Below the pieces are notes generated by a model that searched no databases, had not been told where the DNA came from, and was given only the letters and a program-made list of their open reading frames with translations. Below, piece by piece: positions 4,829-49,859 of a stretch of DNA of 64,000 bases. Position numbers and translations under genes: made by a program. Within the stretch, counting starts at the first letter, position 1; every line of letters begins with the position of its first letter. Origin of the DNA: Eledone cirrhosa (lineage: Eukaryota); contig OZ024748.1 in the NCBI GenBank assembly GCA_964016885.1, positions 13,392,001 through 13,456,000 on the forward strand, read 5' to 3'.

Positions 4829-5035
4829 AGCAGAATGGATATTCAATTTGCTGGCAATTCAACAAATATAAATGTTTATAACTGATTCAGAGCACTCGAC
4901 AAGTTTTCTGGAGTATAATATACAATGATATGAAATAAATGGAAACTATATTTATAAAACCATATTTATTCTATTATATATATTTCAAGGGTACCAACAT
5001 TTTGGTACGCTCTCATCAGATAAAATACGAAGTGT
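4829..5035 (-). mobile_element. Penelope-like pLTR remnant with hammerhead, ending in (TA)n
   Basis: Similar to 10070-10281 and 33591-33790 (shared gagtgct, ccattt, aaatatggttttataaat); contains a hammerhead motif. Confidence 0.7.
4969..5025 (-). ncRNA. Minimal type I hammerhead ribozyme motif
   Basis: Minus strand: ttttat CTGATGA gagcgtacca-aaatgt-tggtaccctt GAAA tatata TA atagaa; stems I and II pair, stem III is palindromic. Confidence 0.75.
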
Positions 5036-5788
5036 GTTTTAGAAATAGCCAAGGAGAATATATCTTAACGGTTCAAGTTTTCCTTGGATACTATCTATAT
5101 ATATATATATATCCAATACAATCTGACACATTATATATCCAGCTAATCCAAATTCTTCCATTAATGTGATCAAACATATTTAACATTATACAGAGCTTCA
5201 ATACGCCATCAAATCAATATTTACCCTGAATCGAATATATTGAACACTAAAGAGTTCAGATAATACAAGAGATCAACATTAAATTCTTCAAGCTGAGAAA
5301 AACATTATTAACGACATTTCAGAAAGGCGTCTAATTTTAAGGATCTATTTTAACATCGCTGCCATTTTCTAGTAACACACCCACACCACCCCTTTCTCTC
5401 TGTCTCTCTCTCTCTCTCTCAGTATCTCTCTCTCTCTCTCTCTCTCTCTCTCTCTCTCTCTCTCTCTCTCTCTCTCTCCTCTCTCTCTCTCTCTCTCTCT
5501 CTCTATCTCTCAGTCTCTCTTTCCCTGTCTTACTTTCTATCTATCCCTCTATCTCTCTCCTTCTTTGTATCTTCCAATCTCTCTCTCTCTCTCTCTGTCC
5601 TCACCCTCTTCAGTATTCCTTTCTTTATATCTCTATCGTTAACATATAATCCCTACTACCAAGTTAATCCGCTATTTCAAGTTAATCTCTCCCTTCCAGA
5701 TATCCGTCTTACCTTCCTCTTTTTTGCCCCCCCCCCCCCTCTCTCTCTCTCTATATATATATATATATATATATATATATATATGTAT

Positions 5789-5852
5789 AGGAAGAGAGCC
5801 AGGATCCGGACGGCTGAGCCCCAAGCCGTTTTCAACAGCTAGATCCGAACTC
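5789..5852. mobile_element. Diverged relative of the family A inverted arm within (TA)n
   Basis: taggaa...gacggctgagccccaagccgtttt matches the family A stem III region. Confidence 0.6.
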
Positions 5853-5920
5853 ATATATATATATATATACATATATATATATATATATATATAGAGAGAG
5901 AGAGAGAGAGAGACGACGAC

Positions 5921-6092
5921 GACGGGCTTCTGCAGTTTCCATCTACCAAATTCGACATATAAGTCACTGTTCACCTCGAAGCAGCAATAGATGGTACTTG
6001 CTCAAGGTACCACGCAATGCTATAGAACTCAGAAACTTGAACACCGAGGTTTGGTAAATGTGGTCTTTAGAAACACAGCTATACCTACGCCT
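5921..6092 (-). mobile_element. Degenerate tRNA-derived SINE (family D)
   Basis: gacgggcttct.cagtttcc.tctaccaaat...acttgctcaaggtaccacgca resembles a common octopus-type SINE recognised from memory. Confidence 0.55.
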
Positions 6093-7153
6093 AAAAAGAA
6101 ATTTAAATTATATATATAATATTTTTATAGTTGTTGTTATTGTTGTTATTGTTGTTATTGTTGTTATTGTTGCTATTGTTAATATGGTGGCAATGGCAGT
6201 GGTGTTTCGATATATTTAATCGGTGCTAAAAGAAAAAAAAATGAAAAATATCCACAACTGAACACACAAGAGTCTTAGATAGCATTTAGAGAGTAAAGAC
6301 ATTGGCAAACGCTTGGTTTCCAGTTACCATTCTCTCCCCTTCTAAAGTCCAGCACACAAATCCACAAACACATATACAATACAACATATGCACACACACA
6401 CTCATATATATATATGTACGTGTGTGTATGTGTGTGTGTGTGTGGGCATGAGTGCGTGTGTGTGTTTGTATATGTGTTTGTGTGTGAATTTAATGTTTGT
6501 TTGAGATATTAATATCAAATTATGCATGTTTAGTTAAATACACACAACAGGGAAAGCTTGTCAACAAGTTGGTTGCTTCTTCATTCGATCATTGCAACCA
6601 CAGTCACGTCGGAAACACTAGAATATGTATATATATATATATATACATACATGGTGTATATATATATATATATATATATATATAAACATACATCGTGTAT
6701 ATATATATATATTTACATCCTGTATATATATATATATATATATATATACACACACAACATACATACTTACATAGGTACAAACGTACATACATATATGAAG
6801 GTTTAGTGTTGAAGAATCCCCCCCCCCAAGTATCGTGTATGGTTTTTATGTAGTTGTTGTGCTGGTGTTGGTGGTGGCTTTGAGGTTGTGGTGATGTATA
6901 TATTATATGTCGTGTGAGTTAAAGTGTGTGTAGATGCCTGAGTGGTATGGTGGTGTTAGTGGTGGTGGTGTGATGGTATGACTTGGATGGTGTGGTGGCG
7001 GTGTATATTTACCATGTCGGGTCGGGTGGGTTTAGCTAAAGGTAGATAGCAGAATAGTGTTGCCAGTTCAGGATTAGGTATGTTGTGGTATTTCATCAGT
7101 AATTCAATAAAGCGCCATTAAGGGTGGTGCCCTTTGTTGATTGCTTACTATAT

Positions 7154-7342
7154 AATTGTTTCTACTTTTGGCACAAGGCCAGCAATAACCCAGTGTATTA
7201 CTGGTACTTTATTTTATCGACCCCGTAAGGATGAAAGGCAAAGTTAACCTCGGCGGGATTTGAACTCAGATCGTAAAGGGACGTAACTCTTTGCGCCAAA
7301 GCATGGCGTCCGACCCTCTACTGATACTGCCAATCCACCGCC
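7154..7342 (-). mobile_element. tRNA-derived SINE family B, short subfamily, full length
   Basis: Minus strand A-box TGGCAGTATCAG and B-box GTTCAAATC; near-identical to 10597 and 13022. Confidence 0.9.
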
Positions 7343-48645: not shown

Positions 48646-48837
48646 AGGAACAAGTATTACCCCGACGGCAGAGCTCAAGCCGTTTCGACAGTTAATTCAG
48701 TCCAGAATTAGCCGTCGAAACGGATTGAGCTCTGCCGTCGGGGTCATACTTGTTCCTATTACCCATTCTACTACCTTAAGTATTGAGTACTTTGGTGCGT
48801 TATGGTCCATCTGGTTCCTTACCACATTTCCTTCGTT
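48646..48837 (+). mobile_element. Family A copy (variant)
   Basis: Both arms share the variants ggcagag/ctctgcc and aacaagta/tacttgtt. Confidence 0.9.
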
Positions 48838-49443
48838 ATATATATATATATATATATATATATATATAAAAGATGAATATAAAATGAAAGTGCTTTTTTT
48901 AAAAAGGAATTTATTAGGTATTGACATATGTTTCTGTAACAGACGGAATACCTATGTATCGCTGCTTGCGTAATCATATAATGTTAGCAAGTATTCGATA
49001 GCAAAATAATTTATACTCGTTGAGCAAACCTACACGTACGCTGTTCATCTCTAACGTAACGATATATTATCACTACATTATTGATAACCTGAAATTTTAT
49101 ATATATATATATATATATATATATATATATATATATATATATATATATATATATATATATATATATATATATAGGTCATTGTCTTTCTCTCGATTTTCTC
49201 ATATACGTAACGATATATTCTCTAACGTAACGATATATTATCACTCCATTATTGATAACCTGAAATTTTATATATATATATATATATATATATATATATA
49301 TATATATATATATATATGTAGGAGGTGAGTTTTATTGTAGTACAATAAAGCAATGCAGATATCGGATAAGAAGCACTCTACAGTTTGTGGGACTGGAGTA
49401 TGCATAATATAAGATCAAAAGATGGTTAAAGGAGTTCCATATA

Positions 49444-49510
49444 TTTTATTATGCGCATTTCAAAAACAAACATCATCAAACAATAATATTTGTGTTTTCA
49501 TCAGATAAAA
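49444..49510 (-). ncRNA. Minimal type I hammerhead ribozyme motif (left arm)
   Basis: Mirror of 49638-49704. Confidence 0.75.
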
Positions 49511-49637
49511 CAGGAGAACATGATATGAAGGCTAAAAAACACTTGTTGATAGTGCAGTTTTAAATCAACATATGATATGTTGATTTAAAACTGCACTATC
49601 AACAAGTGTTTTTTAGCCTTCATATCATGTTCTCCTG

Positions 49638-49704
49638 TTTTATCTGATGAAAACACAAATATTATTGTTTGATGATGTTTGTTTTTGAAATGCGCATAAT
49701 AAAA
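49638..49704 (+). ncRNA. Minimal type I hammerhead ribozyme motif (right arm)
   Basis: ttttat CTGATGA [long AU/GU stem II] GAAA tgcgca TA ataaaa; ATGCGCAT palindrome. Confidence 0.78.
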
Positions 49705-49859
49705 TATATGGAACTCCTTTAACCATCTTTTGATCTTATATTTTATATATATATATATATATATATATATATATATATATATATATATATATAGGTCATT
49801 GTCTTTCTCTCGATTTTCTCATATAATATTTTCCGTAAGAACATCGCTTGCTTCACTAT

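Follow-up and report, generated by a model that had tools for sequence, protein, structure and literature searches.

INTRODUCTION

The Hydra clade of Penelope-like elements (PLEs) was defined by DKT and RWK motifs, a CxCX5C linker, CxxC and CxH without CCHH, canonical hammerhead ribozymes, and insertion at (TA)n (PMC8557442). Hammerhead-bearing Hydra PLEs that target (TA)n have thus been published already; among them is Hydra-1_Obim of Octopus bimaculoides, the one octopus family listed in that paper's supplement. The minimal hammerheads of metazoan PLEs have a palindromic stem III and cut weakly, in a dimer-dependent manner, and a U3-A8 variant occurs in Schistosoma (PMC4209133). In vitro, the PLE Poseidon of Anolis uses two internal priming sites that bound its tail, nicks both strands of AT-rich DNA, and takes uncleaved RNA as its template (PMC11167929). 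Here we analyze hammerhead-bearing elements in a 64,000-nt stretch of the 3.0-Gb genome of Eledone cirrhosa (GCA_964016885.1, contig OZ024748.1, positions 13,392,001 to 13,456,000), hereafter the window; coordinates are counted from its first nucleotide.

An initial annotation of this DNA had reported six hammerheads near TA repeats and proposed that several probably uncatalogued, TA-targeting PLE or retrozyme families coexist here. Our best explanation, to which we give a probability of about 0.85, is that the motifs represent hammerhead-carrying 3' ends of abundant PLEs residing in (TA)n, whose insertion likely proceeded through target-primed reverse transcription of uncut RNA. We found no paper on these families in the open-access literature.

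RESULTS

Hammerhead motifs in the window exceed chance expectation

We scanned the window with a type I hammerhead descriptor (CUGANGA, stem II, GAAA, stem III, UH, and a stem I of ≥5 bp) and obtained exactly six motifs, with cores at 5019−, 10081+, 33370+, 33776−, 49504− and 49644+. All six motifs of the initial annotation were recovered. The window is AT-rich (∼32% GC) and microsatellite-dense, with 11.5% of it in TA runs, and AT palindromes arise readily in such DNA; one might therefore suspect chance matches. However, when the window was shuffled 100 times, preserving dinucleotides in 200-nt blocks, a single motif appeared across all shuffles, or 0.01 per window versus 6 observed. A relaxed descriptor gave seven motifs (the seventh at 59084−), compared to one in 40 shuffles (0.025 per window). 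Moreover, every window motif belongs to a dispersed repeat family that conserves the core. These data leave chance with a probability close to nil.

Stem III is palindromic in five of the six motifs, as had been noticed (ATATATAT in three, ATGCGCAT in two), the other being AGAACT at 33370. The six motifs do not represent six loci. Masked self-BLAST, used to find repeats inside the window, showed that the motifs first annotated at 49444− and 49638+ are the arms of one palindrome, 99.7% identical over 337 nt, and hence there are five insertions. The original list had also overlooked the motif at 59084−, a decayed eighth hammerhead at 36033− (core CUAAUGA), and 11 half-hammerheads, which are insertions of the family termed E below. 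Rfam gave 624 matches for the window, and the 150 that were listed included no hammerhead family, being microRNA models on simple repeats. Five element-bearing loci likewise showed no Rfam match at the gathering score.

The predicted cleavage sites of the window motifs lie ∼45–160 nt 5' of a TA run; the initial annotation gave 40–190 bp. Because 29% of all window positions have a TA run 40–190 nt downstream, this proximity is weak evidence within the window, and it is the dispersed copies that carry the claim.

The motifs lead into PLE open reading frames

For comparison, we fetched genomic loci elsewhere in the same genome, designated by L-numbers. Similarity searches of the genome scored 40 candidates each and give no copy numbers. 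For family A1, all 40 scored genomic places were 91–93% identical, apart from the window's own. Exact 23-nt tail patterns matched 11,620 times genome-wide for family C and 1,740 times for family D, while the reversed patterns, used as a control for these two, gave no matches. The flanks of A1 copies contain pieces of an open reading frame (ORF) for reverse transcriptase (RT) and endonuclease; with one such piece as query, there were 89,383 first-look candidates, of which 112 were scored.

Long copies share a layout in which a pseudo-long terminal repeat (pLTR), comprising the hammerhead and a tail, is followed by a short leader, an ORF encoding RT and then a C-terminal endonuclease, a 3' untranslated region (UTR) of ∼1.0–1.3 kb, a second pLTR, and TA. 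Counting overlapping loci separately, we tallied the locus hits in which a window-like pLTR has a Hydra-type endonuclease upstream of it and shares its strand: there are 11 (A1), 8 (A2), 1 (A3), 10 (C), 1 (E) and 0 (D). The A1, A2, A3 and C motifs are found 0.9–1.3 kb downstream of a Hydra-type PLE ORF, in A1 mostly at ∼1 kb. A2 is 89% identical to L146 over 1,213 nt, and its endonuclease lies 1.2–1.4 kb upstream in L146/L325, L143, L099 and L060. A3 is 78% identical to A1 over 174 nt and 81% identical to L041 over 407 nt, with the endonuclease 1,311 nt upstream in the latter. In the parent of E, L318, a Hydra-type endonuclease lies 1,186 nt upstream. L312 is an intact C copy, with two pLTRs 3,710 nt apart around an 808-codon frame. 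Family B is linked to a PLE ORF in L137, L139, L140 and L141, and its window copy shares 99% identity with the L137 pLTR, which follows a frame of 1,038 codons. The proposed linkage to PLE ORFs was thereby found for A1, A2, A3, C and B.

The standard core, searched as a pattern across the genome, yielded just 24 unlike matches, and we had therefore considered that E lacks a hammerhead; this was rejected, since long copies carry a variant core.

Family D is a non-autonomous PLE derivative

In L321, a D unit of 1,966 nt lies between two direct pLTRs, and a second D copy is 90% identical over 2,041 nt. No stop-free stretch of more than 95 codons exists between the pLTRs of L321, and tblastn of D against PLE proteins gave no significant match (best E 0.19). 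Given these features and its flanking pLTRs, D is a non-autonomous PLE derivative and, in the loci read, not a tandem array.

D brings to mind the non-LTR retrozymes, which spread by rolling circles and consist of short units in tandem, every unit carrying one hammerhead. An alternative is that some or all of the families are of this kind, retrozymes having been named in the initial annotation. D is indeed ORF-less, hammerhead-bearing and PLE-like, with its hammerhead-bearing pLTRs set one unit apart, and a 2026 preprint argues that retrozymes are themselves non-autonomous PLE derivatives (bioRxiv 10.64898/2026.07.22.740005). But A1, A2, A3, B, C and E all lead into PLE ORFs, and for family C there is one head-to-tail match against the 11,620 tail matches, that one being a fold-back. 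The D unit is twice as long as the longest consensus of the preprint (972 bp); D is dispersed, with a pLTR, tail and inverted arms as in an autonomous PLE; and in the loci read it was seen only as a partial tandem, although no genome-wide search for arrays was made. Partial tandems that give two pLTRs occur in L312 and L045 as well as L321. We therefore judge the retrozyme reading very improbable; it fails, except loosely for D.

Other hammerheads were encountered in the fetched loci. Family F, a Hydra-type family from outside the window, has a terminal hammerhead (L323:3684–3760, also in L321 and L324) whose first core box is CAGAAGA (U4A) in 10/10 distinct matched copies. Other small hammerhead-like cores were seen in L048, L052, L045 and L058, the one in L048 beside RT-like frames, so the genome has more hammerhead families than the window displays. 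Pieces of C and E also occur in contigs of two other organisms (runs X5 and X6); these two families are thus not limited to this assembly.

Protein motifs point to two probable clades

The proteins of families A (L045) and C (L312) share 49% identity. Both contain CxCX5C, CxxC, CxH, DKT (within DKTNNLY) and RW, have no CCHH, and match the published Hydra alignment block by block, by eye (PMC8557442). As in that clade, a single ORF encodes RT and a C-terminal endonuclease, the hammerhead is near the 3' end, the sites are (TA)n, inverted 5'-truncated copies occur, and the tail is optional. The protein encoded in the E parent, L318, has CxxC and CxH. For the endonuclease of A, C and E, no match was found in Pfam or, at the sequence level, in the PDB; the order of its motifs agrees, by eye, with that of the published Hydra endonuclease. 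A structural model of the C protein (pLDDT 82) was compared with the PDB using Foldseek, and the three best matches were TERT (E 8e-8 to 1e-6). Argonauta provided the single named homologue among 24 database matches, at 34% identity. On the strength of their motifs, we classify A, C and E as Hydra-type PLEs.

Several features set these elements apart from what is published for the clade. The A and C proteins have RWR, RWC or RWI in place of RWK; the C unit measures 3.7 kb, including a 3' UTR of 1 kb, versus usually <3 kb; tails are ∼60–150 nt versus 30–40; A, C and D have a long stem II with a pyrimidine mismatch at pair 4; and the hammerhead sequences are unlike all those listed, none of which has a U3-A8 or U4A core (PMC8557442). 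Hydra-1_Obim differs from the window families in both protein and hammerhead. By this comparison, the families are probably new, though of a known kind, and the suggestion that they are uncatalogued holds only as far as they differ from this octopus family.

The B protein (L137) has a short CX4CxxC linker and a C-terminal CCHH GIY-YIG domain with YIGET. Its Pfam score for GIY-YIG is 21.8 bits versus a cut-off of 22.6, and RVT_1 falls well below the curated cut-off. The RT motif is YVDD, compared to YRDD in C. Aligned by eye, B resembles the Nematis clade in its linker, CCHH GIY-YIG, YIGET and end-of-domain pattern, but differs in having DKS rather than DKG and a long, low-complexity N-terminus (PMC8557442). 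We regard B as Nematis-like from this alignment; Neptune is a possible alternative. The endonuclease is C-terminal in A, B, C and E, unlike that of the Naiad clade, which is N-terminal in elements that have no canonical hammerhead.

Copies end in TA and at one of two fixed sites

Among copies with a located 3' end, 166/183 have TA alternation within 14 nt of that end; the background at random positions is 14% for the loci and 19% for the window. By family, the counts are 14/18 for A1 (one further 3' end was not located), 11/13 for A2, 13/13 for B, 84/90 for C, 25/30 for D and 19/19 for E. The enrichment of flanks for (TA)n is thus measured, and together with the ORF linkage it bears out the proposal that several TA-targeting PLE families coexist in the window. 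The copies of these families end at one of two fixed sites, either the end of the tail or an internal site ∼60–150 nt earlier.

The structure of C insertions was read from the first 90 of 100 tail matches listed on one contig (C1). An inverted arm adjoins 38/90 copies, and 36 of these 38 arms end at element positions 165–176, ∼90 nt before the tail end. Twenty-nine copies start at element positions 1–20, and 34/90 continue, by the reading of their flanks, into the 3' UTR of the parent. An earlier notion, that C is a short element with a fixed 5' end, came from 25 loci without shared upstream sequence and was discarded as an artefact of the search pattern, which left out the base present in the parent; the tail-anchored copies that reach the 3' UTR corrected it. 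Among the 34 long arms that start at positions 3–230, none starts at position 125, just after the predicted cut, and three start within 5 nt of it. The 5' ends of C instead cluster in a hotspot 124 nt upstream of the predicted cut. In the contigs of one public run, possibly from the assembly's own sample, all 15 of the joints listed, out of 56, have an end at this hotspot (49572–49579). It sits in what we take to be initiator-like sequence, and our best guess is an internal RNA start, with a strong RT stop as the alternative.

Divergence between the arms of C is 1.4% within a locus versus 5.2% between loci, and is the lower within the locus in 27/28 cases. The 17 full palindromes show 12 centre types. 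Together with the shared hotspot, these data indicate that C palindromes form repeatedly, with both arms from one template. Could the 427-nt C palindrome rather be a unit copied whole from one master, in the manner of a miniature inverted-repeat transposable element (MITE)? Its 40 best matches are 99–100% identical with the inverted arm at the same place in all, and the centre and both ends are common to 14/14 examined. But the query contained the centre, and hence selected for it. In the unbiased sample, the centres vary as described, either arm can be truncated, and copies run on into the parent's 3' UTR. MITE-like copying is refuted as the general case and, as an account of this palindrome, seems to us highly improbable; a young sub-lineage copied as a unit remains conceivable.

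Hammerhead cores and stems are maintained, with family-specific variants

To evaluate stem pairing without selecting for it, copies were picked by patterns that fixed the core together with a single stem I strand. In 72 distinct A-type motifs, stem II is 80% paired in register, versus 34% when slid by one and 48% when slid by two. Pairs 2, 3, 5, 6 and 7 are 91–97% paired, with A-U, G-U and G-C exchanges, and the remark that stem II varies yet still pairs is upheld by this covariation across copies. Pair 4 is a pyrimidine mismatch: C-C in 61/72 A copies, C-U in 42/43 C copies, and C-C in 22/25 D copies. Sixty-five C copies picked through their tail alone deviate from the window copy by 0.6% in 12 core positions, versus 4.1% overall. 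The D hammerhead has just 4 adjacent stem I pairs, and its first pair in stem II is U-U.

These hammerheads resemble the minimal metazoan ones in being type I, with a long stem II, a tiny palindromic stem III, mostly solo copies, and opposite-strand pairs 100–700 bp apart (PMC4209133). They differ at G10.1-C11.1, whose retention is limited to B, to E and to a few copies of A, the pair being A-U, G-U or U-U elsewhere. A further difference is the long stem III of E, one copy of which is predicted to fold on its own into a complete hammerhead. Only 3/108 distinct 3' halves of E in the fetched loci extend to the first core box, and the core of the full motif is YUGAGAA. In one sample's contigs, U makes up ∼59% and C 41% of summed depth at position 3, depth being no measure of copy number, and position 8 has no listed change in the same contigs. 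This core is best read, from its sequence, as U3-A8 plus a C3-A8 subfamily, with loss of N7 as another reading.

A tail motif, ACTC...GAGT, is shared by A1, A2, A3, C, D and E, right after the point where short arms end, and is not found in B. Single-sequence folds of the putative hairpin disagree among the six families. The motif is possibly a protein-binding or priming signal.

A model for insertion, and a circular alternative

The data suggest the following scenario. A PLE protein, probably dimeric, would nick both strands of a TA tract, and one cDNA would be primed at each of two sites on the RNA. Repair would then join the two cDNA ends into a head-to-head insertion, and early stops of cDNA synthesis would leave solo pLTRs. 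Hammerheads with a tiny palindromic stem III presumably cut poorly alone, and might act only as dimers or with the aid of protein, at another step. D, being ORF-less, may borrow the protein of a Hydra-type element. Ends at two sites, and the lack of any excess of ends at the cleavage site, fit dual internal priming on uncleaved RNA as described for Poseidon (PMC11167929). There, too, two internal sites bound the tail and the target is AT-rich, although here the sites are read from the ends of copies; a difference is that the hammerhead of Poseidon overlaps the start of the ORF, whereas in A and C it lies ∼200–230 nt upstream.

The same elements could conceivably use a circular template, as proposed in PMC4209133: the two hammerheads of a tandem would cut as a dimer, the monomer would be ligated, and RT moving round the circle would rebuild the hammerhead and a partial tandem. 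The palindromic stem III and the conserved core positions are in keeping with this, as are self-dimers predicted, by a crude model, to be 4–12 kcal/mol more stable than two monomers. Furthermore, the C tail adjoins the element's own start in 5/90 copies. On the other side, hammerhead mutants left insertion unchanged in vitro and no RNA ends were seen at the cut site, for the one PLE studied (PMC11167929), and the sharp C hotspot before the cut is easier to explain by the start of a linear RNA. On balance, we think a circular template unlikely, and favor target-primed reverse transcription of uncut RNA. The transcript of a C palindrome is predicted to form a long duplex (∼−280 kcal/mol) that would lock both hammerheads.

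A number of observations weigh against this reading. With a circular template, too, ends would not be in excess at the cleavage site, and 4/5 of the upstream pLTRs in the C copies whose tail joins their own start extend well beyond the hammerhead, past the cut site. The in vitro precedent is Poseidon, not a Hydra element (PMC11167929). The ORF links of A3 and E come from one locus apiece, Pfam searches of the A and C proteins turned up no family of relevance, and A, C and E are assigned by motifs only. The slid-register control is weak for stems made of A/U runs (in C, 86% paired in register versus 62% and 74% slid). Finally, as slippage after insertion may lengthen TA tracts, 'targeting' may mean a short TA site only.

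Distribution of the elements across the window

The A1 insertion (4829..5095, − strand; core 5019, predicted cut after 4975) is the 5'-truncated 3' end, or pLTR, of a Hydra-type PLE, with TA runs on both sides. A2 (9116..10285, +; core 10081, predicted cut after 10130) comprises ∼1.2 kb of 3' UTR and pLTR and ends in TA. A 3'-end fragment of B without hammerhead follows (10444..10524, −), which is a 100% match to 33112–33172. The latter is part of a head-to-head B insertion on both strands (33110..33565), whose + arm (33353–33565, core 33370) is without tail and whose − arm carries a 61-nt tail and ends inside stem II. Beside it lies A3 (33590..33985, −; core 33776, predicted cut after 33728), a Hydra-type pLTR with the end of the 3' UTR.

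The single palindromic insertion of C, a Hydra-type PLE, occupies both strands of 49317..49743, with its centre near 49574. The long arm (− strand, core 49504) has an 89-nt tail, and the short arm is on the + strand (core 49644). A duplicate of the insertion's flanks with (TA)38 between them, at 49048..49205 (+), resembles an empty site. A repeat at 48880–49097 also ends at a TA run, and is a 96% match to L168/L169. The seventh hammerhead marks the 3' end of the ORF-less element D (58840..59185, −; core 59084, stem III ATGATCAT), which has a 45-nt inverted arm.

E is the commonest element of the window, with 11 insertions (3400, 31423, 31562, 34058, 45842, 48645, 51550, 52524, 56889, 59322 and 61288), most with a short inverted arm. 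All end within loop II, as exemplified by 34058..34232 (+), a hammerhead 3' half with its tail. Inverted ends of 45 nt (45735–45779 and 46299–46343) enclose one E insertion, and this repeat ends at a TA run. The decayed hammerhead constitutes family G (35923..36040, −; core at 36033, stem III ACGU). Copies of G in other loci are 88–92% identical, with intact versions in L060 and L185, and G is also seen at window positions 26744–26783. No piece of a PLE ORF was found within the window, and no long copy of its families in the 8 kb flanking either side.

The window contains other repeats. A 201-codon frame at 54552–55157 (+), for which Pfam gave no match, resembles an R2/R4-type non-LTR element at what we take to be its restriction-like endonuclease end. 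The segment 54181–54486 is repeated in inverse orientation at 57863–58168. A family of ∼190 nt, similar to short interspersed elements (SINEs), has at least five copies (7152–7344, 10593–10783, 13025–13219, 36189–36307 and 53877–53997). A 200-base run of N covers 25986–26185.

DISCUSSION

These results may be part of a larger pattern, which we put forward tentatively and would not bet on. The genome could harbor a radiation of Hydra-clade PLEs whose hammerhead cores have drifted (U3-A8/C3-A8 in E, U4A in F) and whose RNAs may start within the pLTR, upstream of or inside the hammerhead. Copied twice per event, such short, uncut RNAs might populate TA tracts with head-to-head hairpins, near-perfect and numbering in the thousands, with D perhaps a 2-kb stage on the way from PLE to retrozyme. 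If this is true, editing enzymes would have in these hairpins a large supply of double-stranded RNA.

This genome, with its young families, its intact copies and its naturally varying cores, lends itself to the still-open question of what the hammerhead does for PLEs. More than ten thousand ends are available to be counted, given the exact matches to the C tail, and the C junction counts extend two-site priming from one lizard element in vitro to a Hydra-type family. Short TA-flanked palindromes are easily misfiled as unknown repeats, SINEs or MITEs; here, they have been traced to their parents.

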